DNA of 64,000 nt from a virus (IMGVR_UViG_3300009082_000959); one strand, 5' to 3'; positions 15,645 through 64,000 are shown, numbered from the stretch's first letter. Notes: a model not told the origin generated them from the sequence alone. Made by a program: numbers and translations.

Positions 15645-15998
15645 ATGACACTATTACATGACGCAATGGCAGCATATTTGTCTGGTTTAACTACCAAAAA
15701 GAATGAAAAAGAGATATGGTGGTGGGATGAATCTGGATATAAAATTACAGTAGAATTGGTAAATGCTCGGTGGGAAAAGTATATAGTAAGATATTATTAT
15801 GACAACGGTAATCTATCGTCTGAATACAATTACTTCAAAGGTCAGTATCATGGTTTGTGCAAAGGTTACTGTGACAATGGTAATTTAAGGTCTGAATACA
15901 ATTACTTCAAAGGCCGGCGCCATGGTTTGTGCAAATATTACTATGACAATGGTAATTTAAGGTCTGAATATAATTACAACCACGGAAGTTTAAGATGA
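15645..15998 (+). CDS. MORN_2 repeat protein with conserved leader
   Basis: MTLLHDAMAAYLSGLTTKKNEKEIWW leader. Confidence 0.85.
   Translation: MTLLHDAMAAYLSGLTTKKNEKEIWWWDESGYKITVELVNARWEKYIVRYYYDNGNLSSEYNYFKGQYHGLCKGYCDNGNLRSEYNYFKGRRHGLCKYYYDNGNLRSEYNYNHGSLR
15798..15977 (+). repeat. 72-nt tandem repeat, 2.5 copies (MORN units)
   Basis: T(A/G)TGACAAYGGTAAT...TCTGAATAYAATTAC at 15798, 15870, 15942. Confidence 0.85.
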
Positions 15999-16144
15999 CA
16001 CACGATATTGAAAACATATACATTGATATATTAAAATATAAAGCAACTGTTTGGTTCTGTAAATACGAAGAAGATGGTGGCGGATTTACTATTATTACAA
16101 CATCTAATCGCCACAAAAATCCATATAGTAGTTATTATTTATAA
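15995..16144 (+). CDS. mini-gene family member (49 aa)
   Basis: MTHDIENIYIDILKYKATVW...; matches the array motif. Confidence 0.7.
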   Translation: MTHDIENIYIDILKYKATVWFCKYEEDGGGFTIITTSNRHKNPYSSYYL

Positions 16145-22719: not shown

Positions 22720-22722
22720 AGC

Positions 22723-23646
22723 ATGGAAGCAAATGGATATATAAAAGGGTTGTCTGCCGGGGACTTGCAAACATGGCAGTTGGAAAAATTAAACCACGAA
22801 GCACTCATAGACTTAATAACCGAAGATATAAGAATAGAACCTATACTTTGCAAAATAGTTTCCGAATCTACCGACGCTAATTTTTTTAAAATGCTAAATA
22901 CGAGAATGATCAATAGCGCTTTTAATAATTATATTCTATTAAAAAATGCCTATAATGACAAAGTAAAATCTACTCCCGAGCCCTTTATATATGATGCTCG
23001 CTATGGCTATGTGGATTATCCGCAGGAAAGAAAAGAGTTTGTTGTGTGGAGTAGATTAAATGATGAAAACAGAAAAATAGAAATTTGTAGATGGTTAGAC
23101 AATCAATCATCAATTGTGTATGCGTTTTCATTAGACTGGCCTTGGCTTGAAAAAGACGAGTATTTGTCCAATAAAGTGGCAGAAAAAATTGTGCAAAGCA
23201 ACAATGGTTCGATAGGACCTTTCTGTCATAATGTTTCCAGTATTATGTTAGAAAAATATGAGAAACAAATATTAGAGTATTTGTTGTCAAATAAATCATT
23301 TGATGTGGCGAGTGCCTTACTGCAAAATAGTAATTCGATTGATAGTCTTATTATTGCGGCATTTAGAACTTTAAGTAAAACAAGTAATATTAGAGTATTT
23401 CCGCAAACTATACTTGCGCCAATAAAGAAATCGCATTTTTCTGCGCTTCCATCTGTTACTCGCCTCAAATTGTTAGAAAATTTGTGTGAATACAAAGTTA
23501 GGAAAATAAATTTAATAGACATAAAAACTGACGAAGACCTACAACCACTTTTATTTGGCGTATCTTTGAAATACAATTATAGGGCCGCAAGAGTGGTTAG
23601 GGATTTCAATTTAAAATTTTTAAACCAAGGAGTTAGAAATGAGTAA
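22723..23646 (+). CDS. ~300-aa helical protein, family member 1 of 5
   Basis: LPSVTRLKLLENL...EDLQPLLFGVSLKYN. Confidence 0.6.
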   Translation: MEANGYIKGLSAGDLQTWQLEKLNHEALIDLITEDIRIEPILCKIVSESTDANFFKMLNTRMINSAFNNYILLKNAYNDKVKSTPEPFIYDARYGYVDYPQERKEFVVWSRLNDENRKIEICRWLDNQSSIVYAFSLDWPWLEKDEYLSNKVAEKIVQSNNGSIGPFCHNVSSIMLEKYEKQILEYLLSNKSFDVASALLQNSNSIDSLIIAAFRTLSKTSNIRVFPQTILAPIKKSHFSALPSVTRLKLLENLCEYKVRKINLIDIKTDEDLQPLLFGVSLKYNYRAARVVRDFNLKFLNQGVRNE

Positions 23647-24820
23647 GTTTCGCGATCAATCATTGGGTGAAGAGGAAGACATTAGTCCGGAGATAGTTTC
23701 CAAGGCAGCCATGAAAATGGGAAACAGTAGAGCACGTTTGCTACTACAACAACCATTTTACGGTGTGTTGCTGTCTATGGTGGATTTTATTCCAGAGAAA
23801 GCAATTCCAACTATGGCTACTGATGGAGCAAAAATTTATTATAATCCAAGGTATGTGTGTGAAGATTTGACCGACGATGAGGTGTTCGGTGTTATTTTGC
23901 ACGAGATTAGCCACTGCATTTATTTACATTGCACCGCTAAACGAAGGCTTAATAGGGCCCACAAGCGTTGGAACTTTGCAACAGACTATGCCGTAAATCT
24001 TGAAATCAAAGATCTTGGGTATGCGTTGCCACAAAATATTTTGCTTGACCAAAAATACAGAGACATGAATGCCGAGCAAATTTATGATACGCTGCCCGAT
24101 GATGACAAAGTACTTGCAGCTTTGGGCGGAAATTTTGACATTCACATAGACAATAGCGACGAGGCTTCTTGGGATGACATGGAAGACAAAATCATTACTG
24201 CCTATGAGATGACCAAGAACGCGAAGGGAAAGGGCGATATCCCCGCTGGCATTAAGAGGTGGATTGACAAACTACGTAAGGCACGAGTCAAGTGGGAGAG
24301 AGTATTCCATCGCTATGTTGGTCAAGCTTTGGCAAAGGATGACTACTCATTTACCAGAGTGAATAAGAGATTTTTGGGCCAGGACATGTATTTGCCAGAC
24401 ATGAGAAGCCATATTATTGGCAGTGTGGTAGTGGCAATTGATACCAGCGGTTCGATAGGTAAGAATTGTATCGAACAATTTGCCGCCGAAATTGCAAAGA
24501 TAAGTTATTTGATTGAGGATATCACTTGTATTACTTGCGATGCTGAAATTCACGAAGTAGTTAAAGTAAAAAAGTTTGAGAACTTTACCAAGAAACTTCA
24601 CTTCAAGGGCGGCGGCGGAACAAGTCATAAGCCAGTGTTTGAGCATATAAAGAAAATGAAGCAAAATGTAGAGCTCCTTGTGGCGCTCACTGACATGTAT
24701 TCAGACATCCAAGACATAAAGAAACCGGCCTATCCTGTGCTTTGGGTATCAACGAGTGAAATAACAACTGCTCCCTTTGGACAAGTAGTTCAAATTCCAA
24801 ATGACAAGGGAGACTGGTAA
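23639..24820 (+). CDS. metallopeptidase-VWA protein (DUF2201-like), MoxR partner
   Basis: ATDG..IYYNP, LHEISH (HExxH), AIDTSGS MIDAS, GGGGTS. Confidence 0.88.
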   Translation: MSKFRDQSLGEEEDISPEIVSKAAMKMGNSRARLLLQQPFYGVLLSMVDFIPEKAIPTMATDGAKIYYNPRYVCEDLTDDEVFGVILHEISHCIYLHCTAKRRLNRAHKRWNFATDYAVNLEIKDLGYALPQNILLDQKYRDMNAEQIYDTLPDDDKVLAALGGNFDIHIDNSDEASWDDMEDKIITAYEMTKNAKGKGDIPAGIKRWIDKLRKARVKWERVFHRYVGQALAKDDYSFTRVNKRFLGQDMYLPDMRSHIIGSVVVAIDTSGSIGKNCIEQFAAEIAKISYLIEDITCITCDAEIHEVVKVKKFENFTKKLHFKGGGGTSHKPVFEHIKKMKQNVELLVALTDMYSDIQDIKKPAYPVLWVSTSEITTAPFGQVVQIPNDKGDW

Positions 24821-26118
24821 TAGCTAAACACTTAACAATTAAAGATTGTCAGGAAAGTGCCTATGAACACGGAGGAAAATGTTTAAGCACAGAGTATAAA
24901 AATAATAGAACAAAACTTTTATTTGAATGCTCGAAAGGCCATACATTTTCCTCCAATGTGTTTTCAGTTAAAACAATGGGTCATTGGTGCCCAGTGTGTG
25001 CTGGTAGTGGAAAGTTGTCACAAAGTTTTATTGAACAAGAAATAAGTAAAACTGGGAACCTGTTGCTGTCTGACTATGAAAAAAATTCAGCAAAATTAAT
25101 TGTTAAGTGTTTAAAACATAATATTGAATTTAAGACCTCGTGGAAACGATTTTATAGGGGTCATAGGTGCCCAAAATGTTCTACGCGGCCGAGAGTAAAT
25201 TTAAATGATGTGAGCGATTTCGTGTTACTTAAAAATGGGAAAATAATAGATAGCCCTAATTTTAAGGGCAGCAAAAGCAAAATTATTATTAAGTGTTTAG
25301 TTGATGGACATGAATGGAAAACAACTTGGAATAATTTAAAAAAGAATTACTGGTGTCCAATGTGTTCTGGTATAGTAAAAGACCGACAGAACATAGAAAC
25401 AATTATTGATAATAAAAATGGAAAATTATTAGAGTGTCCAGATAGAATAACCGGAAGGTCTATACTAAAAATACAATGTTTAATAGATAATTATATTTGG
25501 AATGTTAATTGTGGTAATCTTTTGAATGGAACTTGGTGTCCTAAATGTGCTAAAAGGGTTATGAAGTCACACAACGAAGTTAAAGAATTCGTAGATAATA
25601 AAAATGGTATTTTGTTGTCGCCGCCAGAAGACTTACAATCTAATTTATCTAAATTAAAAATTCAATGTAGTTGTGGAAATGAGTTTAGTATATCCTATTG
25701 TAATTTATTAAACAACCATCATTGGTGTAGTAATTGTAGCATTAACTCCACACAGTCTAAATTAACAGAGACTTTGGCAGAAATATTACTTAACGAACCT
25801 TATGTTTCTAATTTCCGTGGTTTCGATTGGCTTAAAGATAAAAGGAATTTGGAAATAGATATTTGGTTTCCAGAATTAAAGTTGGCAGTGGAATACGACG
25901 GCCCTCAACACTTCAAGCCGGTTTGTTATGATGGTGACGAGCAAAACGCGGTCGAGCGATTTGAAGACAGGAAAAAGAAAGACCAATTGAAAAACGATTT
26001 AATTGCACAACATACGACAGAAATTAAACACTTCATTAGGTTTAATTTTAAAGAACCTATAACCAAAGAATATATTACGAACAAATTAAAGAAATTTGGA
26101 CTAATTGGAAAGGAATAA
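24820..26118 (+). CDS. putative homing endonuclease (zinc-ribbon + Vsr-like); probable start ATA at 24820
   Basis: Frame is open upstream of track start 24958 and reads IAKHLTIKDC...EHGGKCLS, matching the N-terminus of 40920. Confidence 0.7.
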   Translation: MAKHLTIKDCQESAYEHGGKCLSTEYKNNRTKLLFECSKGHTFSSNVFSVKTMGHWCPVCAGSGKLSQSFIEQEISKTGNLLLSDYEKNSAKLIVKCLKHNIEFKTSWKRFYRGHRCPKCSTRPRVNLNDVSDFVLLKNGKIIDSPNFKGSKSKIIIKCLVDGHEWKTTWNNLKKNYWCPMCSGIVKDRQNIETIIDNKNGKLLECPDRITGRSILKIQCLIDNYIWNVNCGNLLNGTWCPKCAKRVMKSHNEVKEFVDNKNGILLSPPEDLQSNLSKLKIQCSCGNEFSISYCNLLNNHHWCSNCSINSTQSKLTETLAEILLNEPYVSNFRGFDWLKDKRNLEIDIWFPELKLAVEYDGPQHFKPVCYDGDEQNAVERFEDRKKKDQLKNDLIAQHTTEIKHFIRFNFKEPITKEYITNKLKKFGLIGKE

Positions 26119-32610: not shown

Positions 32611-32793
32611 ATGGATAAATTTGATCTTTCATTTGAAAGTATTAGTTTTATATACTTGAAAGTGTTTAAATATAATTTTCCAATAAAAATGAAAGATAAT
32701 AATATTTGTATTGATTACCCAGCACTTGTAAAAGAGAAATATAGTTTATGGCGTAGGATTCGCCAGGAAATATTAGATTTTTTATGTATGTAG
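32611..32793 (+). CDS. mini-gene family member (dispersed)
   Basis: ISFIYLKVFKYNFPI motif. Confidence 0.55.
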   Translation: MDKFDLSFESISFIYLKVFKYNFPIKMKDNNICIDYPALVKEKYSLWRRIRQEILDFLCM

Positions 32794-33661: not shown

Positions 33662-33696
33662 GTCGCAACACCCAAAAATGTTGCGTGGATTGAAAC
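33662..33696 (+). CRISPR. solitary type I-C-like CRISPR repeat unit (no array)
   Basis: GTCGCAACACCCAAAAATGTTGCGTGGATTGAAAC; GCAACA/TGTTGC stem; GTCGC...GCGTGGATTGAAAC ends typical of I-C repeats. Confidence 0.75.
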
Positions 33697-33934: not shown

Positions 33935-33968
33935 GGTTGCATATGCCTGAAAGCATATGCAGCCTTTT
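33935..33968 (+). terminator. 12-bp hairpin plus T4 (terminator or IS left-end hairpin)
   Basis: GGTTGCATATGC-CTGAAA-GCATATGCAGCC-TTTT. Confidence 0.55.
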
Positions 33969-34031
33969 AGGTATCGAATATATTTATGTTTTCCATTGAC
34001 AATTGTTGACAAACGGTATATTATTATAATA

Positions 34032-35198
34032 ATGTTCAAATCCACGAAAACTACTTTACGGTTTGCTAATACTGGTAAACGAAATCACCTTGACAGTTTC
34101 CTCGACGAGTATCGTCGTGTGCTTGCGGTTTTCGTGGATTTGCTTTGGTCGCAAGAAAAGGTCCCAGTGTTGTTACCAGCTTCCGTCACGAAACCAATTC
34201 AAACTACTTCGTGGCTTTCCGCGAGAATACTACAAGCCGCAGGAAAACAGGCCAGCGGAATAGTTCGCGGAACTCGTAAAAAGCAACAACAACGAAAGTG
34301 GGTTTACGACAAACTCCAAACCGAAGGCAAATTTAAACAAGCACGAAAACTAAAACGAATTATAGACAAAGTCATTATAACCAAACCAAATATAAATCAA
34401 GTAGAACCAGAATTAGATTCGCGTTTTGTAAAACAGGACTGGACCAACTCAACTACTTTTGATGGGTTCGTGACTTTGTCTTCGTTGGGTAATCATTTAA
34501 AAATTGTGCTACCAGTAAAGCGTAATAAACATTTCAATAAATTGCTCACCGCTGGAACACTTAAAACCGGTGTCAGGATTTCACGTAATGCTTTGACTTT
34601 TTGTTTTGAATTACCTGACGTCAAACCGCGTTCCACAGGAACTACACTGGGAATAGACTTGGGAGTAAAAAATACTATCTCTACTTCCCAAGGATTTTCC
34701 AGTAAGCCCGACAACCACGGACATACACTGGATTCCATCAATACACGATTGACACGGAAAACAAAAGGTTCTAAAAACTTTAAACAGACACAAACACTAC
34801 GAACTAATTACATAAACTGGTCTGTGAATCAACTTAATTTAGACCAAGTTAAGACCGTAAAACTCGAAAACTTAAAACATTTTCGTAAAGGCGTAAAAAC
34901 TTCACGCAAACTAACCCACTTCACCTACACAGAGATTCAAAGTAAAGTAGTAAATTGTTGTAATTTACTTGGTGTCCAAGTAGAATACGTAAATCCTACT
35001 TATACTTCTCAAAGGTGTAGTTGTTGTGGTTGGGTTCGTAGTAGCAATAGGAAAGGCAAACAGTTTAAGTGCAAAGCCTGCGGCTTCGCTGTGGATGCGG
35101 ATTTAAATGCTGCCTTAAATATTGCCACTAACCTTCGGCCTATTGGCCGTGAGGAACGATTGCTCCACAAAAACCGCAAGGGTTTTTACTGGAAGTAA
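34032..35198 (+). CDS. tnpB: TnpB RNA-guided nuclease
   Basis: RuvC-I GIDLG, RuvC-II LENL, zinc finger CSCCG/CKACG, RuvC-III DADLNAALNI; TTGACA-17-TATTAT promoter at 33996-34024. Confidence 0.9.
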   Translation: MFKSTKTTLRFANTGKRNHLDSFLDEYRRVLAVFVDLLWSQEKVPVLLPASVTKPIQTTSWLSARILQAAGKQASGIVRGTRKKQQQRKWVYDKLQTEGKFKQARKLKRIIDKVIITKPNINQVEPELDSRFVKQDWTNSTTFDGFVTLSSLGNHLKIVLPVKRNKHFNKLLTAGTLKTGVRISRNALTFCFELPDVKPRSTGTTLGIDLGVKNTISTSQGFSSKPDNHGHTLDSINTRLTRKTKGSKNFKQTQTLRTNYINWSVNQLNLDQVKTVKLENLKHFRKGVKTSRKLTHFTYTEIQSKVVNCCNLLGVQVEYVNPTYTSQRCSCCGWVRSSNRKGKQFKCKACGFAVDADLNAALNIATNLRPIGREERLLHKNRKGFYWK

Positions 35199-35789: not shown

Positions 35790-36132
35790 TGCGATGACAG
35801 CCTACTTGTCTGGCTTGACTGCCAAAAAGAATAAAAAAGAAATCTGGTGGCAAGACAAAAATGGATATAAAATTACCGTAGAATTAGTAGATGCTGATTT
35901 AGAGACATATATAGTAAGAGAATACTATGACAATGGAAAACTATGGTTTGAAATGAATTATTGCAAAGACCAATTGCATGGTTTGCTTAAATGCTATAAT
36001 GATAATGGTAATTTAGCGTGGGAATACAATTATTTAAAAAGCCAGCGTCATGGTTTGTGCAAACATTACTATGACAATGGTAATTTGCGGACACAATATA
36101 ATTACAATAACGGAAAACGAACACAAATATGA
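35773..36132 (+). CDS. MORN_2 repeat protein with conserved leader
   Basis: MTVLHDAMTAYLSGLTAKKNKKEIWWQDKNGYKITVELV. Confidence 0.85.
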   Translation: MTVLHDAMTAYLSGLTAKKNKKEIWWQDKNGYKITVELVDADLETYIVREYYDNGKLWFEMNYCKDQLHGLLKCYNDNGNLAWEYNYLKSQRHGLCKHYYDNGNLRTQYNYNNGKRTQI

Positions 36133-36560
36133 TACTTTTGTATGATGCACTGACAGCCTATTTGGCAGGACTTACTACTAAACTCAACGAAAAAGAAATT
36201 TGGTGGAAAAATGAATTGGGTAAAAAGATTACTATTGAGTTGGTAAGTTTGCGTTGGAAAAAATACACAGTGAGATATTATTATGACAATGGTAATTTGT
36301 GCTGTGAGTTAAATTATAATAAAGACGACCAACGGCACGGTATGTGTAAATGGTATTACGAAGATGGTAATTTGCACCATGAATTTAATTACTATAAAAA
36401 TCAATTACATGGTTTGTGTAAATCTTATTATGAATACGGTAATATTTCAGAAGAATTTAATTACCATAAAGGCTACCGACATGGATTAAATAAATGGTAT
36501 AATTTAAATAGTAACATAATTTTAGAGGAAAATTACAAACACGGAATACCACATGATTGA
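36129..36560 (+). CDS. MORN_2 repeat protein with conserved leader
   Basis: MILLYDALTAYLAGLTTKLNEKEIWW. Confidence 0.85.
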   Translation: MILLYDALTAYLAGLTTKLNEKEIWWKNELGKKITIELVSLRWKKYTVRYYYDNGNLCCELNYNKDDQRHGMCKWYYEDGNLHHEFNYYKNQLHGLCKSYYEYGNISEEFNYHKGYRHGLNKWYNLNSNIILEENYKHGIPHD

Positions 36561-37353
36561 ATTACTTTTTAGAAACACACTGGCGGAAGAAAACGAATTA
36601 CAAATAGCAAAAAAATATTTTGATATAAAACAGTATCGTTCAGAAATTACTCCGGGAGCGTTGATTATAGGCAGATATTCTGTTCTACCTTACTATAATG
36701 AACTGGAAAAAGATATACTAAAATTAGGCGGCAAACTAATTAACTCCTACGAAGATCATCTTTATATTGCTGACATAAAAAATTGGTATCCTGATTACCG
36801 AGACATAACGCCTATGACTTGGTTCGACCCATCAGAAGCAATACGGTCCGACTTTAACGGTTCCTTTGTTTTAAAAGGCAATGTGAATTCTCGAAAGCAA
36901 TTGTTTAACACACATATGTTTGCTGCGAATAAATCTAATATAATGAAAGTTTATTGCAAATTATTAGACGACACTCTTATTCAATATCAGGGAATTTGTG
37001 TCAGAGAGTTTGTGAATTTAATCAACTACGGCAAAGACCAAGTAACCGGTTGCCCAATATCAAAAGAGTTTAGGCTTTTTATTTTAGACGGCAAAGTTCT
37101 TTCAAAGGGATATTACTGGTCAAATTTTGTTGAAGAAGCAGAAAATCCGGACCCAAACGAAATACCAGAAGACTTCATACAAGACGCAATCAAAAGATGC
37201 CCAGTAAGATTTTTTGCTATTGACTTGGCCCAGAAAACTAACGGTGATTGGATGGTAGTTGAATTAGGAGATGCACAGATGGCTGGTCCATCTTGTAATG
37301 ATTTAGATAGTTTATATAAAAACTTAAAGGAAAATCTATGCAAAAAAGTATGA
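36553..37353 (+). CDS. ATP-grasp domain protein (R2K/DUF4343-like)
   Basis: FVLKG..NSRK, EFRLFILDG, FAIDLA...GDWMVVELGD. Confidence 0.75.
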   Translation: MIELLFRNTLAEENELQIAKKYFDIKQYRSEITPGALIIGRYSVLPYYNELEKDILKLGGKLINSYEDHLYIADIKNWYPDYRDITPMTWFDPSEAIRSDFNGSFVLKGNVNSRKQLFNTHMFAANKSNIMKVYCKLLDDTLIQYQGICVREFVNLINYGKDQVTGCPISKEFRLFILDGKVLSKGYYWSNFVEEAENPDPNEIPEDFIQDAIKRCPVRFFAIDLAQKTNGDWMVVELGDAQMAGPSCNDLDSLYKNLKENLCKKV

Positions 37354-38609
37354 CAGATGTATATTTGAGTGTTTTAAAACACAAATGGCATTTAAGTGTG
37401 GCAAGAATGCAATTGTTACCAGAAGAAGAAATTAGATTATATTTAATGCCAACGATTAATGGCTATTATTGGCGCTCCATAGTTATAGTTAGTGGAAGTC
37501 AATGCAAGTATCAATGACATACATTTATATTTATGCACTCAAACATAAATGGTGTCTTAATTTATGTGGTTCAGTATTTAAGAACGAAATTTGTTTAAGT
37601 ATGAGACCGGCAAGGAGCAGTAATTGTTATATTTTTCGTGTAAAGGAAATCTATGCAAGCAACAATGATGTATGTATATTTAAGTGTCCTAAAATATGAG
37701 TGGGGATTAAGGTTGGGGCAAAAAAATCCAATATTACAAAACAACAACATTTGTGTATGCTTGACTCAACCAACAATGTCTGGCGGTTATGGTTATCGTG
37801 AGTATAATTATTTAATTAAGGCAAAACAATGAGACCGATTATAAAGTATACATATTTATATGTATTTAAACACAATTTTGGTTTATCCGTTGATGTTCTT
37901 ACAAAAAATGAATTAGTGTTACTTGCAACACCTCTAAATAACAATGATTATTGTCCCTTTCGAATATTTATTAAGCAGGTAAGATTATGCAAGCAAATAT
38001 GATGAGTTTGTATTTTTATACATTAAAATATAATTGGCATTTAGAGAATACCCATATATCGGTGAAAATAAAATTTACATCGACATTAGACCAAGCGTAA
38101 ATGGTTTTCATTGCTTCCATATTATAATTGAGGGAAACACATGCAACCTAAAATGAAAACCGTATATATTCTTAATTTGAAGCACAACTATTGTGTGGAC
38201 AGCGCAGAAATAATCGATAGCGAAATTACAATATATTTAAGGTCATCCATTAATAGTTTTAAACGGCATACTATTACGATATACGAGGATCAAGCAGCAT
38301 GCAATTAGATATGGTAGATTTATATGTTTATGTGTTGAAATCTAAATGGAGTTTGGAGCGTGAAACAATTATATACGAAAATATGCTTTGGATATATATG
38401 AGACCAAAACTTAATAGTTTTTACCGTTATCGTATTACAATTAAAGGAAATTTATGCAAGAGTCTATGAAAGCCATATATATTCTTAATTTAAAATATAA
38501 TTACCAAATATTTAAAGATAAGATAGTAATAAACAATAATAAAATTAGATTAACTGTTGGTGGAATTCAAGTTGAGATGCATTTAAAATGGAGGAACAAA
38601 GATGATTAA
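37338..38609 (+). other. mini-gene array A: 8 overlapping ORFs
   Basis: Starts 37338, 37502, 37653, 37829, 37988, 38141, 38299, 38454; e.g. MQKSMTDVYLSVLKHKW, MQPKMKTVYILNLKHNY, MQLDMVDLYVYVLKSKW. Confidence 0.85.
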
Positions 38610-39201
38610 TAAAGAGTTTGCAAATATAATGAACAATGCAAAAGATTTAACAATTGGGCAAGTATTTAAAATAATTACTCATCTTAAATTCAAAACAGTG
38701 GCCGCCGTTGTTGCTTTTTTTGTGGCGATCGTATCAGGTTCTTTTGTGATAGGTAGATATTCCTATCAAGAAAAAACGGCACTTACCCTCGATAGTCCAT
38801 TTGGTATGAGGTTGCTGATAAGTGAAAAACAATACGAATTCAAAAACCTAATCTTAATGGAAGACCCAATTAATTTGGCAGACAATAGTGTAATACTAAC
38901 TATACGAGAAATACAAAATGCCTTTGATATAGTTCCGATAGGAAAAATAGTTGCACGAAAAGAAAAAATTGAGTTGCCAGGAGTTTTTGGGTTGTTCAAT
39001 TTTAAGTCAATCGGAGTGGCCAAAGCATCAGAAGAGTTTAATTGGAACGGCCACGAGAACGATATGAATTTTAAGGAAGTATTTATTGATAGCAACACTA
39101 TAAACAGATACTACGAAGACGGTTGTATTTTAGAGTATAAAGTTTGCGAGGATAGAAAATCTAACAAAGGTTCTTTTAGATGGATACAACAAAATCATTA
39201 A
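38602..39201 (+). CDS. membrane-anchored hypothetical protein interrupting the mini-gene array
   Basis: TM segment TVAAVVAFFVAIVSGSFVIG. Confidence 0.65.
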   Translation: MINKEFANIMNNAKDLTIGQVFKIITHLKFKTVAAVVAFFVAIVSGSFVIGRYSYQEKTALTLDSPFGMRLLISEKQYEFKNLILMEDPINLADNSVILTIREIQNAFDIVPIGKIVARKEKIELPGVFGLFNFKSIGVAKASEEFNWNGHENDMNFKEVFIDSNTINRYYEDGCILEYKVCEDRKSNKGSFRWIQQNH

Positions 39202-40629
39202 TGCAGGGTAGTATGAAAAATTTATACCGCGATGTATTTAAACATAATTTTTATGCAAAGGAAGTATATATTATTGAATGTTATACTTTAATTCGGTGTT
39301 TAAATAACCATCACGAATATGAAGTTTATCACTGTTACTTTAAATAAAGGACATTATTAATGCAATCAGAAATGATGAATGTATTTAAATGTGGAAATAG
39401 AATAAATGCTATTTGGATTATGGAAGGATATGTTGATATTTATTTTAAAGATTCTTTTTGGTATTCTTATTTTTTAGGTGCGCTTATTTTGAATAACGGA
39501 GTCACAAATGCAATCAGATATGATAGCTTTATACTGTGATGTATTTAAATGTAATTGTAAGATATCAAGTTATAAAATATTACCAAAATTTCGCGCAAGT
39601 TATGGAACACACAGAAACCACATTAGAGTAAGTTGCGAGGGATCATCACAACATGATTTTTATATTATTTGGTATAAAAAATGATGCAACCAGAAATGAT
39701 AAGATTATATAAAAATATGTTTAAATGTCATTACAAAATAGTAGAGCATTACTTTATAGAAAACAACAGTGATAATAAAAAATGGGTAGTTGTAAGGGCT
39801 AATGGTGGGTTTCCATATTATACTGCTCACTTTATTGAGTGTGCAAATGAATAATATACAATCATTGATGGGAAATAATATGAAAATGCTGTATGCCGAT
39901 GTATTGAATCGTGGCCTTAAAATTGTGAAAGCGCCCATTTTTCGTGGCAAATTTATGTATATTTTCGTCGAGGTTGGTCCGGGAAGAAATGTATGTAGTA
40001 TATTTCGCTGCACAATTTAGGTGAGAAGACAATGCAATTTTATATGAAACAATTATATTGCGATATTTTTATGAGAAAATATAAAATAATAAGTTATAGT
40101 GATGAATTAAGATATGTTAATTCTAATGAAAAAATTATTGAAATAGTTTGCGGTGAGAATGGGTATATTTATCATTATTCTATCCATCACAAATAAGGAA
40201 ATCTACTAATGCAATTTTATATGAAAGTGTTATATCGGGATTATTTTAAATATGGATATAAAATAAACAATGTATATATCGATGATTTATCTAATGATAT
40301 TTTAAATATTTATTGTCATACATGTGAGTATCAAACATATACCATTAGAATTGGCTTTAATTATATATATGACATATGAAAAGTATATAATTAAAGCCAA
40401 TTGATATTTATAAAAGTTTAAATTTATGTATGTTTGTTTTAAAGATTTAATGTAGCTTACTCATATACTATAAGGTTTAATAAAAATGCAATATAGTATG
40501 AGACAATTATATATAGATATATTTAAATATGGAGAAAAGCCAAAAAGTGCTACTATATCACATAAAAAAATTGTGATATTTAGTTCATATGGTGATTCGC
40601 TACTTAGATATACGATAGATTTAGTTTGA
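39201..40629 (+). other. mini-gene array B: 8 ORFs plus one decayed unit
   Basis: Starts 39201, 39360, 39508, 39684, 39868, 40032, 40209, 40486; e.g. MQSDMIALYCDVFKCNCKI, MQYSMRQLYIDIFKYG. Confidence 0.85.
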
Positions 40630-40919: not shown

Positions 40920-43639
<2,720 letters not shown>

Positions 43640-48597: not shown

Positions 48598-48915
48598 ATG
48601 AAAATTACAAAAAGATGGAATAATTTAATAAATATTAGCAAAATAAATTACGATATGGTTGAGATAGATGAATCGGTATATGCTTGCGCCCCAAGCGTTT
48701 TAGATAATAAAGAAATATTAAACAGTTTGAGCACTGGGAAATTATGTGACTTTTACACAGTAGAAAGTTTAAAAGATAAAAGGTCGAGTCATTTAAATTT
48801 ATCTATTATGTGGGAGGCCGTAGCAAGGTGGGTGTATAGGTGTCAGTGTGGTGCTGAAAAAACTAAAACAACTCATTCATTGTGGTGTCCAAAACATGAC
48901 AGTCACAGAAAATAA
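48598..48915 (+). CDS. hypothetical protein with C-terminal zinc knuckle
   Basis: CQCGAEK...HSLWCPKH. Confidence 0.55.
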   Translation: MKITKRWNNLINISKINYDMVEIDESVYACAPSVLDNKEILNSLSTGKLCDFYTVESLKDKRSSHLNLSIMWEAVARWVYRCQCGAEKTKTTHSLWCPKHDSHRK

Positions 48916-50146: not shown

Positions 50147-50542
50147 ATGAAAACAATACTTATGTTTAAAGATTATAACAAATATAAAAATATACTTTTT
50201 GATGTCTCCACAAAAGAACAAGAGAAAAAAATATACGCTTATATTTTGAAAAAATTCTTAAATAAAAAGAAGATGATTAAAACCCAAAAAGAAAATATGG
50301 CGAGAGTTGATTTCAGTTGCAAGGCTTGTAAAAACAAACGCTTTATTATAGCAGACAATGAAAAATATCCGTGCCCAATTTGTAGGGCCGATGATTCGGA
50401 TTTTATGTATCATGCGGGAGTGATTAAAAACATAGATTTTCTTTATGATAAAGCCCTAAACGGTAATAGAAAATCATTTAGATATTTGATGGAATACTAT
50501 TACGACGGCTACATAGAATATTTAAATGTGAAAGAAATATGA
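50147..50542 (+). CDS. hypothetical protein with CxxC...CPxC
   Basis: CKAC...CPIC. Confidence 0.55.
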   Translation: MKTILMFKDYNKYKNILFDVSTKEQEKKIYAYILKKFLNKKKMIKTQKENMARVDFSCKACKNKRFIIADNEKYPCPICRADDSDFMYHAGVIKNIDFLYDKALNGNRKSFRYLMEYYYDGYIEYLNVKEI

Positions 50543-51021
50543 TTATAACAAACGCCGCACAATTAAAAATTCCGTGCAAAAGGATATCAATTTTTGAGGC
50601 ATTTCCAGTAATTGATTTACTTAAAATAGAATTAGAGCGCCATAAGAATGGCGTAGGTCTCGCGGCCAATCAAATAGGTATAGATGCTTGTGTTTGTGTT
50701 GTGCAATCAAATGAACTAATAGCCTTAATTAATCCGGTCATTGTTGGTGCATACGACTTGGTTGAATTTAAAAACGAAGGTTGTTTAAGTTTTCCAAATC
50801 AATATATAACAACCAAACGACATAATGAAATTTTTGTGAAGGATGATTTACACCCATATGGTTTGATATTTTATGGGTTTGAGGCCGTTCAAGTTGAGCA
50901 TGAGGTAGGCCACTTAAACGGAGAAACTATGTTTGATTATGAAATAAAAATACCACAAAGAAACGAGAAATGTTGGTGTGGCAGTGGAATCAAGTATAAA
51001 AATTGCCATGGTAAAAAATAA
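50539..51021 (+). CDS. def: peptide deformylase with C-terminal SEC-C motif
   Basis: GVGLAANQIG, EGCLS, HEVGHLNG; RNEKCWCGSGIKYKNCHG. Confidence 0.9.
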   Translation: MIITNAAQLKIPCKRISIFEAFPVIDLLKIELERHKNGVGLAANQIGIDACVCVVQSNELIALINPVIVGAYDLVEFKNEGCLSFPNQYITTKRHNEIFVKDDLHPYGLIFYGFEAVQVEHEVGHLNGETMFDYEIKIPQRNEKCWCGSGIKYKNCHGKK

Positions 51022-53867: not shown

Positions 53868-54071
53868 ATGATGAATAAAAGTGATACTGACCAAATTTAT
53901 GTTTCTGTGTTGAAATTTAATAGGTCAATTTGCCACGAAGGCGAACTGATTAAATTATTACTTCCAAATACCCCAGTGATTGTAAAGTTTATAAAAATAA
54001 CCGGCGGCCAAACTGCGTGGCTTCTTGATCGTCACGATAGAGACATATACAACTTTTACGGAGAACAATAA
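53868..54071 (+). CDS. mini-gene family member (dispersed)
   Basis: TDQIYVSVLKFNRSI motif. Confidence 0.55.
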   Translation: MMNKSDTDQIYVSVLKFNRSICHEGELIKLLLPNTPVIVKFIKITGGQTAWLLDRHDRDIYNFYGEQ

Positions 54072-54651: not shown

Positions 54652-54903
54652 ATGAAAAACGAAGAAATGGAAACAATGTATGTGGAGTGCATGTGTGAAG
54701 ACCAATCACACACTTTAAGGTTTTCACAAATAGGTGAAGATGTTTGTGTATCAATGCACCTAACTATGTTTGGATTTTGCGTCCGACTTTGGAATGCTCT
54801 GAAATATATCTTTGGCCATCGATCGAAGTTTGGTGATTTCGAGGAAACCATTTTGGAAAGAAAAGATATAAAAAAGATAGTTGGGTTTCTGAAAAATGTC
54901 TGA
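54652..54903 (+). CDS. hypothetical phage protein
   Basis: ECMC...H.LRF...RLWNALKYIFG..SKFGDF.E. Confidence 0.6.
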   Translation: MKNEEMETMYVECMCEDQSHTLRFSQIGEDVCVSMHLTMFGFCVRLWNALKYIFGHRSKFGDFEETILERKDIKKIVGFLKNV

Positions 54904-57900
54904 ATATATGCAAGATTTTTATAAATCTGTTTTTAAATACGGGACGAAAATTATAAAAAAATACGAATTATGTAGTAATAATTTGTCCATTGATTTAAAA
55001 AACAAGGGTGGGTATTCCGGGATTAGATATTATTTTTATTGCAGGATAAATAAATATGATATTGACTGACGAAGAAAGAATATTGTATATTAAAAGAATA
55101 TATATTTATCTTTTAAAAAAAAAGGAGTGATAGCAAAAAGCCATACACGTGATGCTTTTTATCATAGCGTAGTTACGATTGGTGTTCCGGGAGACATATT
55201 TTGTGCAGACAATTATTTATCTGAATGTAGGTGATTTGTGCAATACGGAATGATGAATGTTTATATTATGTATTTCAAACGCAAACATAGTATTTATGCC
55301 GGCGGTAAAATTAAAGAATTTAATAATATATATTTGCGTGTAGATTTTATAATTAATGGGTATGTTAGGGGCTACACTATACTGCAAAAATAATGTTGGA
55401 GTAAGTTATGCGCGAATCTATGAAAATGGTTTATGTTAAATTTCTAAAACACAAACAAATAATATACAAATATGAAATTTATCAATATTTTGGCAAAGAA
55501 TTTGTAGCGATAGAGTTTAATGGTTTTGGCGTTTGGCCTTACCGAGTTTCAATAGAGGTAATATAGGTGGCAGACTATGCAGCAACATATGAAAATAGTT
55601 TATATTAGATTTATGAAAAAACAACAACAAATATGTGCATATAAAATTAGACTCAATTATCTGACGGTAGATTTTAATATATTCGAAAGTATTTGGCATT
55701 ATTATATCAATTTTTAAGAAAGTTAAATCATGCAATACGAAATGATGCAAATATATACTAAAATTTTAAAACATGGTCGTAAAATTGATTCTTATAGTAT
55801 GTTGTTTGATTCTACTTGTTTAGAGGTTAATATTTTTCCTTCCACTTATTTTATATAATATCGGAGTAGTTTATGTGTGGTCTTATGAGGATAGCGTATA
55901 TATGTGTTTTAAAAAAGAATTGTGATATTTGTATATCCGATCGCATTCCAACTACATCTGGGTATGATAAAATTAAATCAAAACCACCATCGAACGACAT
56001 CTGCTTTTATATTTCGGATAAATTTTAATCATGCAATATGAAATGATTGACCTTTATATTGAAATCCTAAAATATGGTTCCAAAATTAATAAATATTATA
56101 TGGTTGGTAATGATTATTTGGGTTTAGATATTTATATTTTCCATTTTTATATTAAACAGAAAGAACAACAATGACTGATGCGATGAAGAAATTTTATATT
56201 TATGCTTTAAAATATGGATACGGGATTTACATAAATGAGTGGCGGTCAATTAGCCTCGGCGGCGATAGAATTTGTATTGAGCTTTATCCTCCCACGAAAA
56301 ATTCTTAATTTTGTTTTAAGGTAAAATAATGGACTGTATGATGCAAGTATTTTATATTAGTATATTAAAACAAAAATATATACCAGAAATAACAGAAAAG
56401 TTAATAACTTCTGATGGCCGTCATAGGGTTTTTATTAGATTAAAAGGCGTAGATTATTCTGAATTCTTTTTTACAAGCGAGTTTTGATTATGCAACAATC
56501 TATGGTAAATTTATATATTGATGTATTAAAATATAATTACCACATTGTGGGAGCATTTTCAGCAGAATATTATAATTTATATTTCACATTGCGTGAAGAC
56601 TACACACATTATTTTTTTATAGAGAAAACGTGAACACTCACTCAATATACATTGACTTTTTCAAAAACAAATTCCCAATTGTTTGGTATCACGTTTTTGA
56701 GAGCGGCGGAACTTGGTGGGTTGAAATCGAAACAGAATGGAATAAATATTTTATACGACAAGGCAAACAATGAGTATTCCAAATAGTATGCAGTCAATAT
56801 ATATTCAAATTTTAAAATATAAATGGTCAATAACAAAGTCTTATCCAGTAGTGAGATTTTGTGGCATTGATAGTGTGGCCATAGAAATAAATTGCCTGCC
56901 TTATATACTGGTGCAAAGGGCGCAAAATGACAGAATGTGGCATTAATTCTCTATATATTAGTTTATTTAAAAACAAACACACAATAAAAGATTATCGAAT
57001 ATTTAACCTTAATGGTTTTTCATTTATTATCATCTACACAAATGAAAACTTCAACAATAAATATTATGTTCTTTCAGGAGTCTAAATGTATAATTATATT
57101 GCACCAAATGGTTTTTGCAAAAATGCAATTTTTGGCATATATATTCAAATTTTCAAAAACAACTGGTCCGGCAGAGTGGTTGGAAGAGTAAATGAAAAAT
57201 TATGCACAAGTATAACAATAGAATTAACAGACCCAAAAAATAAATATAATTGTGAAACAATTTATAAAGAATTATTTGCCGGAGATTTACGGACACGATA
57301 ACAAAATGACAGAAAATATAAGACAAATTTATAGGCAAGTTTTTAGGAACAAATGCACCTTGTGGCAAAAAACAGACACTGAAATAATAGTGATGCATAA
57401 CACTTTACAATTATATAGACTTTATGTTTGTGAGGAGCCGGTGCCAGGAATTTATTTTTTCTAATGAGGTAAAAATGGATTGGAAAATAGCAAACATTTA
57501 TCGCGGTGTTTTTAAGTTTGGCGAAAAAATCGAAGTTATAAAAGCAAACAAAAACTTTTTAATGGCCAGCACGACAGATTGTGATGGTTATAAGACTTTA
57601 TATTATTTATATAGTCTTGAAAGCAAATAGGTAGAGGTATGACAATGCTACCATATCGAACAATTTATCGCAGAGTTTTAAAATATAACTATACTATGAC
57701 ACAAAGAAATATAAATAATTATGGGATACATAGTGAAATTTCTTTTTGGTTGGGGCAAACACTAGCAAGCTCATTTATTGTTTATGGTAATGGAGTTTAT
57801 TCTTGGAGAACTTAATGGCAATTCCAATAGCGTGTGAAATGACATATATAAAAGTTTTAAAATACGGCTACACGATGGAACAAACGAAAAAATGCTCACC

Positions 57901-60758
57901 GAAGCCAGAAACAGCGTAGAAAAAGCAAAGAGAAATTTTTTGATTATGAAATTAGCGGGGTTAAGTCGCAACACCTAAAATGTTGCGTGGATTGAAACAA
58001 ACAGAATTCTATGGCCCTCACTTTATTTGGACTGGAAACCGATGCAAGTAGAAATGAAATATTTATACATAAACATACTTAAATATAACAACAAAATATA
58101 TAAAATGAAGCTCTCCAATTACTGGCTAATATTACAAGCAAACGATGAAGCACAAAATTATCATAAAGTTTATATTATATACGACAAGGAAATAAATGAC
58201 TAATGGCATGAAAGATTTATATATCTATGTATTTAAAGAAAATTGCAAAATATATAAACCATTTTATTGGGGTGACTACCTTGTGATTAATTGTAAATCA
58301 TCATTTAGTGATCCTGTCTTTGATTGCTGGATTAAAACATGCAAGTAGATATGCAAAATGTTTATATAGATTTCTTTAAGCATAATTACACAATAAAACA
58401 AACATCACATTATAGTAAGTGGTGGAAACTTGTTATTAGAAATAGTAAGGGAACTTATTATTATAACTATTATTATCGAGTGAAACATAAATGACAGAAG
58501 AAATGCAAAGTTTATATACAAAGATAATTAAGTATAATTACAAAATATATGAGGTAGGATATTTGGACGCTTGGTGTATATTATATGTTAAAAGTAAAAG
58601 TGCTAATGGGTTTTACACACAAAATTGTTTTATTGAATGGAAACATGAATGACTACTGGTATGAAAGACATTTATAGATATTTCTATAAGCATAATTATA
58701 CAATAGAAAAAATTCCAACCCATTTAGGCAATACATTAGAGCTTCGCATAAAAGATAAGAACGATTTATCTTGCTCTTATTTTTTCTTTTATGGTGGAAG
58801 ATAAATGATTAAAGATATGCAAAATGTTTATATAAATTTCTTTAAGTATAATCACACAATAAAACAATATGGTAATTGGTGGCAACTTGTTATTGGAAAT
58901 AGTAGTGGAGGCTATTATTACAACTATTGTTGTCGGGTGGAAAAGTAAATGACTAATGGCATGAAAGACATTTATATCTATGTATTTAAGTTTGGTTTCA
59001 AAATATATCAAAATCACACTTACCGCGATTTTTGCGAGTTTTATGTGGTTGGCCCTCTTGAAACTTTGCGTCTTTGTGTAATTGATTAGTGGAGAAATAT
59101 TATGATACCGAGTGCAATGAAATTTGTATATATAAAATCATTTAAGGGTGGTGATAAAATTCATGCATATCACAATCATCACGAACTTGGTTTTCTTGAA
59201 ATTTGTTTTAAGCATTGGTTTGTTGGCAGTATAATAAGGCGTTTTATTCACTATGGAAAACGAAAATGCAAGTAGCAATGAAAGACATTTATATAAGTGT
59301 ATTTAAATACAATCATAAAATATATGATTATTATCCCTATGATGATTTATGCGTAATCTATATTAAAGATAAATACAACATTTTTACGGGGAGATATAAT
59401 GTCAGACATGCAATATGATATGAAAAAACTTTATATATCTATTCTTAAGCATAAAGCGCCCATACGCTCATGCACTAGACATACCAGTGGATTTTATGTG
59501 ATTAAGGCATATGTTAAAACAATTTATGTAGAAAAATTAAAGAGATACTATATTTTTAGATTACCGACGAGCAAAAAATGAAAGAGCACATAAGAGAAAT
59601 TTATATAAGTTTGCTCAAACGTAACTACACAGTATATGCATGTTTTAGGTCACCTGATGATTACGAATATATAATCGATCTTCGAGTAAGCTATTATTTT
59701 GCTTTCGATAGACATTTTCTTCGGCCACGGGAGTTGGAATGCAAAGAGATATGATAAAATTGTATGTTGATTTTTTTAAGTATAATGTTGCAATATATAA
59801 GATGGAAACGCCAGAATATTTGGAAGATACAGTTATGGTGTTTTGTGTGTCAAAATCTAATCTTTATTATTTTAATTATTGCACTATTAGAAAGTAATAT
59901 ATGATGCCACTTAATATAAAAAGCATTTATTTGAAATATTTTAAATTTAACCTTCCGATATTATCATTTTCTGAATCTGGATATGATGAGGGTGGATACA
60001 TAATTGATATTAAATCAACTCTTCCTACATATTTGGAGAGATATATTCTACTGCCAACATTATCTCGCCACACACTTGTTCGATTATAATATTTGGTGCC
60101 AAATGTCTTATGAAATAGCAACAATATATACCGAATTATTTAAGCACAAGGGAAGAATAATTGGTTTTAATCACTTAAACACTTACTATGACATAACAAT
60201 AAGTTTGTATGGTTCCTATGACGCGCATCACTTATATATTACTTAAAGGGAAAAATATGCCAGATAAAATTAGACATCTTTATATGTGTATGTTTGTTTG
60301 GGGCTGGACTATAAATAAAATAATTGAAAGAAATAACCATTATAGTATAGAAATTTTTTCTGATTCAATGAAGTATAAATATAATTATAGATTGGAAAAA
60401 TAATGATATTGCCATATAAAATTAATAATATTTATGTATTATTGTTTAAGCGTAATTGGATTGTGAATGAAGTAATTGAGAGAGATGAATGTTATGATAT
60501 TTATATATCTGCTTCACCTCGCATAATCAGCGCATGGAATTTATATAGATTGGACAAACAATGACTTGGGCAATGAACAGAATTTATTTTAGGTTGCTAA
60601 AACATAAAAATACAGTTGTTTCAGTAGATAAGCAAAATGAAATAAATGCATATGTTGTAAAATTACGCGACCAAACATCCCAGTGTGTTTATACTTACGT
60701 TCTTTATGACGATAATTCACCAGCAATAGTATTTAATAAAGGATCAAATAATGATTGA
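54896..60758 (+). other. mini-gene array C: ~36 head-to-tail ORFs (mostly 42-71 aa)
   Basis: Starts 54896, 55056, 55238, 55408, 55577, 55730, 55873, 56031, 56171, 56329, 56490, 56630, 56770, 56927, 57086, 57306, 57475, 57639, 57815, 58042, 58196, 58339, 58491, 58649, 58805, 58949, 59102, 59266, 59408, 59578, 59739, 59901, 60103, 60257, 60403, 60561. Confidence 0.88.
57965..57998 (+). CRISPR. second solitary type I-C-like CRISPR repeat unit
   Basis: GTCGCAACACCTAAAATGTTGCGTGGATTGAAAC; differs from the 33662 copy only in the loop. Confidence 0.75.
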
Positions 60759-62012: not shown

Positions 62013-62765
62013 ATGGATCGTAATATTAGTAGCCTATACATAAATATATTTAAAAATAACTGTAAAGTTTATGAGTTTGTAAATGAAAAAAACTTGTATA
62101 TTATTAGAGTGGAATTACGCGGTTGGTATAAGCCATGTTTTTTGTGGAAATAATATAGAAAGCGGTTGAAATGTATTACCTTATGAGTGTTGTATATATT
62201 AGTGCATTAAAAGATAAATGTAAGATTAATATTGCAGAAGATGAATTCTCATATATTGTTTGGGTTGTTCCAAAAATTGGGTATAGTGTTCCCTATTATC
62301 TAAAAAGGTAATTGAATGAGATACGAAGTGTTTTATATGTATTTTTGGTTGTTTAAACATAATCTTAAAGTTATTGAGTTTATAGAAGAGGAAAATGAAT
62401 ATATAATTTATCTTGAACCAGGTCGTAGCTTGCGTCCATATGTTTTTAAAAAATAGAAAGAGAATTATAATGATTTATGGTATGCGTTATATTTACAAGA
62501 AGTTCTTTAAATATAATTACAAAATTATAGGATTTGAGTATAAAAATGAAAAATTATTAATTTATGTTAATGATATGTTTCCACGTGCCATATGAAATTC
62601 TTTGTTAAGGCGCCGGGCATGAGTTATTATATGTGTAGTATTTATATACAGTTGCTTAAATATAAATACAAAATTATAAAATTTAAAGAAACAAACGATA
62701 AATTAATATTTTATTTTGATGATAATATTATCGACCTATCTTTTCCCTACGAGGTTAAAAAATGA
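62013..62765 (+). other. mini-gene array D: 5 ORFs
   Basis: Starts 62013, 62171, 62316, 62470, 62619; e.g. MDRNISSLYINIFKNNCKV, MIYGMRYIYKKFFKYNYKI. Confidence 0.82.
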
Positions 62766-63220: not shown

Positions 63221-63558
63221 CAGACGCTTTTATACAAGAACTATTAAATAAAAAACGTCTTGGCAAAGAGAAACTAAAATTAGTGTTAAATGAACTTTTC
63301 AAAAGAGGAAATTTGGACCAAGAGGACATAAAATACAATGAGTCAAAATTTCCCTTCACCAATAAAGAGTTTGCCGCTGCGTTTGAGCACTTGGTCGATG
63401 GCAAGAAACCATCGAACGCGACGAACGACAACGAAGTGTGGATTTTTGACCACAGGGGCCATATTTTTACGGCAGAAATAATCATGGGCCAAGGGTCATC
63501 ATATATTTTATCAATGGGTTCTCGTTACTCAAAGTTGCCAGTGATAAAATTAAAATGA
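63205..63558 (+). CDS. hypothetical protein
   Basis: 117 aa. Confidence 0.55.
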   Translation: MDKNLADAFIQELLNKKRLGKEKLKLVLNELFKRGNLDQEDIKYNESKFPFTNKEFAAAFEHLVDGKKPSNATNDNEVWIFDHRGHIFTAEIIMGQGSSYILSMGSRYSKLPVIKLK

Positions 63559-64000
63559 GTCCATCGATTTATAGATTATACGTGGATATATTTAAGCACA
63601 AAATAAAGGCAAAGTGGAAGACCCGTAAGGGTGAAAATTATTTTATGATTTATTCGAGCCAGGAAAATGGAATAAACCACTTTTATTTGTTGGTTGAAAC
63701 TAAAAATGGATAAGTCAGTTTATAGATTATATATAGATATTTTTAAAAACAATATTAAGGCCGACTGGACTGTTACCTATATGATTGATTATGTGTGGGT
63801 TGTTGCGGAAGAAGACAATTATGGGTTTCGTAGTTACTTTTACATATTACAGGAAATAAAATAATGGATTATTCTGTTCGTGAAATGTATATAAATATTT
63901 TAAAATCAAGATCAAAAATATACGATTATCATGTTTATTTTGATAATTCTGTCCGAATTTCTGTTATAGGTAATAATTTTAAAAGATATCACGTTATACT
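63555..64000 (+). other. mini-gene array E: 3 ORFs, last one runs off the window
   Basis: Starts 63555, 63706, 63864; MSPSIYRLYVDIFKHKI, MDKSVYRLYIDIFKNNI, MDYSVREMYINILKSRSKI. Confidence 0.8.

Follow-up and report, generated by a model that had tools for sequence, protein, structure and literature searches.

What does a large phage encode in a region tiled with dozens of very small, mutually divergent reading frames? The question is raised by a 64,000-nucleotide stretch of a virus genome (IMGVR_UViG_3300009082_000959), referred to here as the window, which comes from a 223-kb uncultivated freshwater-sediment phage and holds some 63 units of one gene family, 37 of them in a single + strand array at 54896..60758 (array B). 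The answer proposed is that these are a fast-evolving family of real genes for single-domain proteins of about 50 residues that would serve as a repertoire of small binders, a statement which, taken as a whole, is given a probability of roughly 0.45. Its genetic and structural part is held with high confidence when considered alone, and the binding or anti-defence function is put forward tentatively.

Census and coding nature of the units

Open reading frames (ORFs) of the window were listed down to 35 amino acids (aa), and a hidden Markov model (HMM) built from the motif-bearing ORFs of array B was run against all six-frame stop-to-stop fragments of the window. Array B is covered by + strand ORFs of 42-71 aa at a pitch of ca. 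160 bp. At E<1e-3 the model matched 50 fragments and at E<0.05 it matched 64, all of them on the + strand with the exception of one marginal match, and most matches span positions 1-50 of its 52 positions, i.e. end to end. Ten block-wise dinucleotide-preserving shuffles never yielded more than a single match at E<0.05 and had none at E<1e-3, with a top score of 10.9 bits in the best shuffle versus 63.7 bits in the real sequence. The first-pass annotation of this locus had proposed about 36 mini-genes in array B and 60-65 in the window, spaced at about 160 bp and sharing an N-terminal motif that would not arise at similar frequency in shuffled sequence; the counts, the spacing and the motif were all recovered.

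As defined by the HMM, the gene models and the shuffle control, array B comprises 34 intact units of 42-71 aa and three decayed ones. Packing is tight, with junctions ranging from -20 to +20 nt and one 122-nt gap as the sole exception. The units had also been described as mostly invisible to ORF callers, which overstates the matter, as 23 of the 36-37 array B units are called in the deposited record (GCA_902730985.1, 223,498 bp), leaving 13 uncalled, and about 40 members from the window are listed as predicted proteins in a public protein collection. The same collection lists a 289,349-bp contig carrying the window's proteins, as against the 223,498-bp NCBI record, and given this longer contig the deposited genome may be incomplete.

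Evidence that the units are genes comes from several features of their nucleotide sequence. Most members have an ATG at HMM position 1, followed by a second ATG 12 nt further on, and a purine-rich, Shine-Dalgarno-like GGAG/AGGA block is located 7-12 nt 5' of M1. Tyr9 never varies, and 55 of 59 members have Lys14. Near the starts, the information carried by codon positions 1, 2 and 3 is 0.48, 0.63 and 0.37, respectively, the third being the lowest. TAT and TAC both occur at the invariant Tyr, as do AAA and AAG at the conserved Lys, and as many as nine different codons serve the Leu/Phe position when arrays of 30-45% GC are compared; the motif residues are preserved also in foreign arrays, on contigs of 38-45% GC, with different codons. 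Relative synonymous codon usage correlates with that of the phage's large genes at 0.89 in frame, versus 0.75 and 0.78 out of frame. Over the whole length, the proportion of nonsynonymous differences (pN) is lower than that of synonymous differences (pS) in 13 of the 14 closest pairs. Taken together, the codon-position, synonymous-codon, Shine-Dalgarno, junction and codon-usage evidence argues that conservation acts on the protein and that the units are real protein genes.

The same evidence bears on the reading that the conserved ~60 nt act as a recurring signal in DNA or RNA, for instance a promoter or structured RNA, with ORFs arising incidentally in AT-rich sequence. The region is indeed only 28-30% GC, and some members have Lys-Tyr-Asn codons that read TATAAT, preceded at a distance of 16-17 nt by TTTATA, but sigma-70-like promoter sites are not enriched (82 versus 74.9 +/- 9.8 in shuffles) and neither are terminators relative to shuffles in the same scan. 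Such a signal would also have to account for third codon positions being the least conserved, for a protein-level motif kept with different codons in the 38-45% GC arrays, for the lack of matches in shuffled sequence and for two independent alignments that fold confidently in AlphaFold (see below). This non-coding reading is contradicted by the codon-level evidence and is extremely improbable.

As regards expression, many neighbouring units share ATGA-type stop/start overlaps. The combination of same-strand runs, a Shine-Dalgarno block for each unit and overlapping or abutting stops and starts suggests that the arrays are probably polycistronic, with coupled translation, and they are read here as translationally coupled operons. 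No RNA dataset is listed as containing the array or a 1.2-kb part of it, the only DNA match being the probable source sample, a freshwater sediment metagenome.

Fold, conservation pattern and the search for relatives

The conserved residues follow a regular pattern. Across 59 members, helix positions 5, 8, 9, 12 and 13 are 93-100% hydrophobic, forming a stripe spaced i, i+3, i+4, i+7 and i+8, and further hydrophobic positions of low diversity are found at Ile19 and at alternating sites in two later segments. The columns in between accommodate 8-15 effective residues, and Lys14 is the sole conserved polar residue. Structure prediction used two alignments, one of 56 window members (A1) and one of foreign members only (A4). 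With A1, AlphaFold2 folded the best-scoring member of the family, a 50-aa protein (59266..59418, + strand), at a predicted local distance difference test score (pLDDT) of 91.5, with a helix at residues 3-14 and strands at 18-24, 28-34 and 40-47. With A4, the pLDDT was 88.6 and the order of elements, helix-strand-strand-strand, was identical; the window and foreign profiles match each other at 97% probability (E 5e-11).

It had been suggested that a constant helix docks on one shared partner and carries a separate, variable beta module. The models do not bear this out, as the helix and the three strands form a single 50-residue domain. The single-domain fold and the hydrophobic stripe instead argue that the N-terminal motif is mainly core-facing rather than a separate docking helix, and that it represents mostly the hydrophobic core face of one compact domain of ~50 residues. 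In such a domain the amphipathic helix would pack M5, L/I8, Y9, V/I12 and F/L13 onto one face of a three-stranded antiparallel sheet, leaving Tyr-rich loops and outward-facing strand positions that would differ in almost every copy. The proposed division into a conserved N-terminus and a variable C-terminus holds in part. Of the 14 closest pairs, 11 have a lower pN in the N-terminal than in the C-terminal part, and when an HMM of the C-terminus alone was cross-validated, in both folds, only 3 of the 29 held-out members scored higher than the 99th percentile of composition-matched shuffles. The C-terminus is not free-form, however: its columns carry 24.5 bits of information versus 13.1 +/- 3.0 (maximum 19.8) for shuffled and realigned C-termini. 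The C-terminal half is thus nearly unrecognisable by sequence, yet retains its positional hydrophobic pattern. The proteins are rich in Tyr, which accounts for 10.9% of their residues as compared with 3.2% for the large genes, and their median pI of 8.8 makes them mildly basic.

The family had been taken for one large, unrecognised group of paralogs, and the searches agree. No consistent match was returned by Pfam, PHROGs or NCBIfam with all members searched, and the family profile had no match among PDB sequences; over the same collections no homology to a validated anti-defence protein was found. Two members searched by tblastn against 50,697 deposited phage genomes gave nothing at E<=1, megablast of the array gave no match, and Foldseek against PDB, BFVD, AFDB clusters and Swiss-Prot returned nothing at E<=0.001. 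Among ESM Atlas features the best value was 0.77 (HigB-like), within the noise range. Degenerate-pattern scans of viral contigs yielded no matches in one case and a single contig (L006), rejected by the HMM, in the other, and a word-indexed protein search added solely P0052 and one further window protein.

Exhaustive structure alignment returned middling, tied matches, namely half-modules of the VOC superfamily (Z 4.5-6.1) and HicA toxins (Z 4.5-5.2). HicA (PF07927), a type II toxin-antitoxin mRNA interferase with a fold like that of the double-stranded RNA-binding domain, resembles the family in size and in having a helix followed by three antiparallel strands from residue 1. HicA chains are the only same-sized structural matches aligned from the N-terminus and recur for both models: 4p78_D scores Z 5.0 with the first model (root-mean-square deviation 2.4 A, 47 of 66 residues) and Z 5.2 with the second (2.0 A, 45 of 66 residues), for which it is the best match, and 6g26_E and 1whz_A are found likewise. 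These matches, together with the median pI, could suggest degenerate descendants of HicA mRNA interferases, with RNA as their target or with a decoy role towards HicB-type antitoxins or toxin-antitoxin defence. Against such descent, a profile-profile comparison of 101 family sequences with 28 genuine HicA sequences, collected from genomes searched with PF07927, gave an hhalign probability of 0.9% and a score of 11.2, as compared with up to 11.7 for column-shuffled controls, and PF07927 matched none of 56 members at E<=5. The HicA fold is alpha-beta-beta-beta-alpha, of which the first four elements superpose, tied with unrelated folds, while the family models have no C-terminal helix; a Z of ~5 is also reached by common arrangements, and VOC modules tie with HicA at that level. 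HicA also occurs as one toxin-antitoxin pair, in contrast to ~63 tandem copies here, and no HicB-like partner appears among Pfam scans of the few non-family neighbours, no search aimed at HicB having been made. HicA descent is thus quite improbable.

VOC modules raise a different alternative. Modules of this superfamily function as pairs, and the family members might likewise be self-associating building blocks in which the open sheet face pairs with another member, as in glyoxalase/VOC halves, to give combinatorial homo- or heterodimers or a larger assembly. Superposition matches the helix and three strands to the final four elements of the beta-alpha-beta-beta-beta half-module (PF00903), which is among the best geometric matches and was found again in the ESM Atlas shape search, with TM scores by query of ~0.7 and up to 0.72. 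A 50-residue unit would leave one face of its sheet uncovered, and a natural head-to-tail fusion of two units exists, a 104-aa ORF (P0033) at 408-722 of a 911-bp marine sediment contig (L003). This fusion is a single case on a very short contig, and is either a natural tandem-domain form or the product of a lost stop codon. Moreover, the family has no sequence relation to VOC, the glyoxalase Pfam family having no match in 56 members; its units are without the first strand of the VOC module, stand free at 50 aa rather than in a paired domain of ~120 aa and have no conserved metal-binding His or Glu, no column of either residue being conserved in the family alignment. A two-copy complex prediction with A1 scored 0.01, which counts neither way. 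Self-association of this kind is considered unlikely. The failed profile test, together with the lack of a conserved His and of a C-terminal helix, therefore sets the family apart from both HicA and VOC, and the resemblance is that of a common, simple arrangement of elements.

Spread and turnover of the arrays

Within the window the family extends beyond array B. Array A (37338..40629, +), identified by HMM and gene models as were the two that follow, comprises 15 units, one of them truncated (37987-38100), and is split by a 199-aa non-family gene (38602-39201) without a Pfam match. Array C (62013..62765, +) has five units and array D (63555..64000, +) has three, of which the last reaches the window end; in the deposited record this run stops shortly beyond it. 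A strong, full-length stray (15995..16144, +; E 8e-8) lies between NT5C-like and RNase T-like genes. Of the additional sites named in the first-pass annotation, these three arrays and the stray at 15995 stand. Two others are weak, showing the N-terminal motif only: 32611..32793 (+; E 1.7e-3, HMM positions 4-24) and 53871..54071 (+; E 2.4e-3, HMM positions 7-20). A last one, at 48896, falls away, being a 21-codon relic (DLYSFKNGW) with no start codon. Four decayed copies are present in the window, one in array A and three in array B, the latter being a 24-codon fragment (55056-55130) and a start-less fragment (55094-55234), which together occupy 55056..55234 (+), and a truncated 34-aa copy with the helix and first strand only (57815..57919, +).

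A profile search of 1.84 billion representatives returned 50 proteins at E<=1e-3, about 40 of them the window's own and ten foreign. Similar arrays occur in at least three unrelated metagenomic phage contigs, with 30 family matches on 30 kb at 40% GC (L001), 16 on 16 kb at 38% GC (L007) and 13 on 25 kb at 45% GC (L008), in each case on one strand; these contigs are partial and the counts are minima. Two further small contigs carry members, one of them from a marine sediment metagenome. In the foreign arrays (L001 8100-11200; L008 3300-4750), the 20 nt before nearly every start approximate ACACCAG-GGGAGA-TAAAAG, a sequence that supplies the following gene with a strong Shine-Dalgarno site and also encodes the recurrent LTPxGxK tail of the gene before it. 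A junction conserved in this way is a possible substrate for unequal recombination.

Comparison of related contigs indicates rapid turnover. Between L001 and L007, flanking genes are 42-63% identical, whereas the best cross-match of array members averages ~30%, the level seen among paralogs within one array. As cross-matches are no better than paralogs, no one-to-one orthologs survive between the two arrays, and by the same comparison the family diverges much faster than the genes around it. A relative of the window's own phage (L005), syntenic with 12.3-20.5 kb of the window at 45-71% identity, has a single member at a site that is empty in the window, and the window's 15995 stray is absent from it. 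A further contig (L027) is 100% identical to the window and offers no orthologous differences for pN/pS.

Pairwise identity within the window averages ~21% and rises to 27-28% for neighbours within 500 bp, and synonymous sites are saturated for nearly all pairs. At the DNA level, repetition is confined to the 5' ~60 nt (61-84% identity) and one fairly recent whole-gene duplicate, the pair 58339/58805 (67% aa identity); Tandem Repeats Finder does not detect the array. Diversification by a diversity-generating retroelement was considered and set aside, as no near-identical template/variable repeat pair occurs in the window; among the proteins scanned no reverse transcriptase was seen, in a search that was not exhaustive. 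The closer likeness of neighbours, the differences in copy number and content between relatives and the presence of decayed copies point to an old family that evolves by birth and death and whose surface diverges fast.

Turnover of this kind could also be largely neutral or selfish, with a ~160-bp cassette that spreads under weak selection as its conserved 5' portion and its junction recombine unequally, and most copies having no specific function. The 5' ~60 nt and the junction, as the only DNA-level repeat, could seed unequal crossing-over, and decayed copies, cassettes at differing sites in related phages and a ratio of nonsynonymous to synonymous rates (dN/dS) of ~0.75-1.1 in the two youngest pairs, from very few sites, would all be expected. 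Despite saturated synonymous sites, however, about 59 of the 63 units keep an intact frame, and the fold-defining residues are preserved through synonymous codons in phages of 30-45% GC. Packaging limits apply to phage genomes, and yet the family takes up ~10 kb of the 64-kb window. Neutral proliferation is accordingly regarded as fairly unlikely.

Genomic setting and the case for a binder repertoire

The genes of the window lie almost entirely on the + strand and include those for a DNA ligase, a PIF1-type helicase, GroEL, HNH endonucleases and a clamp-loader-like ATPase. Array A is directly preceded by an ATP-grasp gene and array B directly followed by one for a nucleotidyltransferase, and a denV-like glycosylase gene separates array C from array D, so that the arrays are situated in a region of replication and nucleotide-metabolism genes on the same strand. 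Other features of this region include three HNH/homing-endonuclease-like genes (PHROGs 559 and 1314) at 21694-26118 (+), two of them paralogous, among the replication genes; in T6, homing endonucleases are a demonstrated driver of segmental amplification (PMC13096335). Upstream of array A, a gene at 36129-36560, together with further genes in L026, matches MORN-repeat variants (PF07661), representing another locally expanded family of small genes. The phage's own GroEL-type chaperonin is encoded at 42041-43639, and a gene of the deposited record at 50539-51021 has peptide deformylase and SEC-C matches.

Embedded in array B is a solitary 34-nt hairpin resembling a CRISPR repeat (57965..57998, +), with a 7-bp stem and an 11-nt 3' tail ending GTGGATTGAAAC. 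It occupies the sole sizeable gap of the array, just after the truncated member at 57815-57919, and is a matter of context rather than part of the protein family. A second, near-identical hairpin of 35 nt is located outside array B at 33662-33696 (+); the pair takes the form GTCGC-stem-loop-stem-GCGTGGATTGAAAC, with differences confined to the loops, and neither has a partner at spacer distance. The ends of the hairpin look like those of type I-C CRISPR repeats. About 260 nt downstream of the second hairpin lies a gene for a 413-aa TnpB/Cas12f1-like protein (33957-35198, +; Cas12f1-like_TNB E 1.8e-18, weak OrfB_IS605), and the repeat might belong to that element rather than being a CRISPR mimic. 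Phages can carry solitary repeat units that work as RNA anti-CRISPRs, and such units are reported to be more frequent within 1 kb of anti-CRISPR genes (PMC10651486); by analogy, the hairpin in array B would lend weak, circumstantial support to an anti-defence reading.

The mechanism favoured here would operate as follows. Members would be made together from polycistronic transcripts by coupled translation. The arrays grew by tandem duplication, after which copies diverged deeply and now and then decayed, and elsewhere single cassettes come and go. Every member would have its own host protein to bind, and probably to block or redirect, be it a component of a defence system or another takeover target. 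A binding role against variable host proteins is proposed because it fits the turnover, the genomic context, the amplification of anti-defence genes in T4 and T6 and the accordion model. Such amplification is documented for tifA in T4 (PMC9391042) and, driven by SegB, in T6 (PMC13096335), and the accordion model has been discussed for large phages (PMC13359090). The idea of a diversifying repertoire of effectors, whether for anti-defence or for host takeover, which the first-pass annotation had also raised, is plausible, with circumstantial support from the fast turnover and the embedded hairpin.

Several points weigh against this interpretation. No member resembles any known anti-defence or host-takeover protein, and PADLOC, applied to the neighbours, gave no convincing defence-system match. 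Coding status is read here from sequence features, and that the conserved residues are buried is an inference from their periodicity rather than from model coordinates. The dN/dS values of the two youngest duplicate pairs (~0.75 and ~1.1, at very few sites) are equally compatible with relaxed constraint or diversifying selection. The identity of the hairpin as a CRISPR repeat is only suggestive, as its Rfam CRISPR-DR matches, at E 1.5-8.5, fall below the gathering threshold and its exact 18-mer has 17 single matches in prokaryote genomes, about the chance rate; the same look-up found no host CRISPR array with the hairpin's repeat. The adjacency of hairpin and members is itself weak evidence, because anything inside a 6-kb array adjoins a member.

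Comparison with described systems places the family only in part. Multigene families that behave as genomic accordions are known from large viruses, as in the amplification of poxvirus K3L and the multigene families (MGF) of African swine fever virus (ASFV). In phages, the host-takeover module of SPO1 and the hyperplastic regions of T4-like phages are clusters of small, mostly mutually unrelated genes. With the accordion families (K3L, ASFV MGF, T4 tifA and T6) the arrays share tandem paralog expansion in a large DNA virus, copy number that varies between relatives and an expected link to host-virus conflict. The T4 and T6 amplifications are, however, recent, near-identical segmental copies of a known anti-defence gene, whereas the present family is ancient (~21% mean identity, saturated synonymous sites), tiny and present in ~63 units. 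The SPO1 and T4-like clusters resemble the arrays as dense runs of small same-strand genes near replication genes in a large phage, but here one family makes up essentially the whole cluster. Phage anti-CRISPR and anti-defence loci (PMC10651486) likewise have runs of small, fast-evolving genes on one strand and a solitary CRISPR-repeat-like hairpin on that strand, although no family member matches a known anti-CRISPR protein and no Aca-type regulator was identified, no search aimed at one having been made. A described equivalent, i.e. a phage with ~10 kb given to ~60 deeply diverged copies of one 50-residue domain, was not found in the literature searched. Viral multigene expansion is a known mode, and the protein family itself is new and stands out in both its size and its copy number.

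Large viruses are known to adapt by expanding paralogs, and the 13 uncalled units of array B indicate that annotation misses a real share of the coding content of huge phages. If the members are binders, they would form a new class of phage effectors to be screened against defence systems and a natural experiment on the variability of a minimal fold, in which some six core positions stay fixed while all others can vary, with possible use as a compact scaffold in protein engineering. The fullest version of the proposal is doubtful, namely that some large uncultivated phages carry a genome-encoded library of scaffolded binders of ~50 residues, with dozens of co-expressed paralogs that share a constant helix-on-sheet core and differ in their Tyr-rich faces, each neutralising a different host defence or takeover target, and renewed by duplication and cassette exchange, here co-expressed with an RNA anti-CRISPR in the same operon. 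Should it be true, it would describe counter-defence through the breadth of a paralog repertoire rather than through a few dedicated inhibitors, a previously undescribed strategy, built on a natural minimal binding scaffold.

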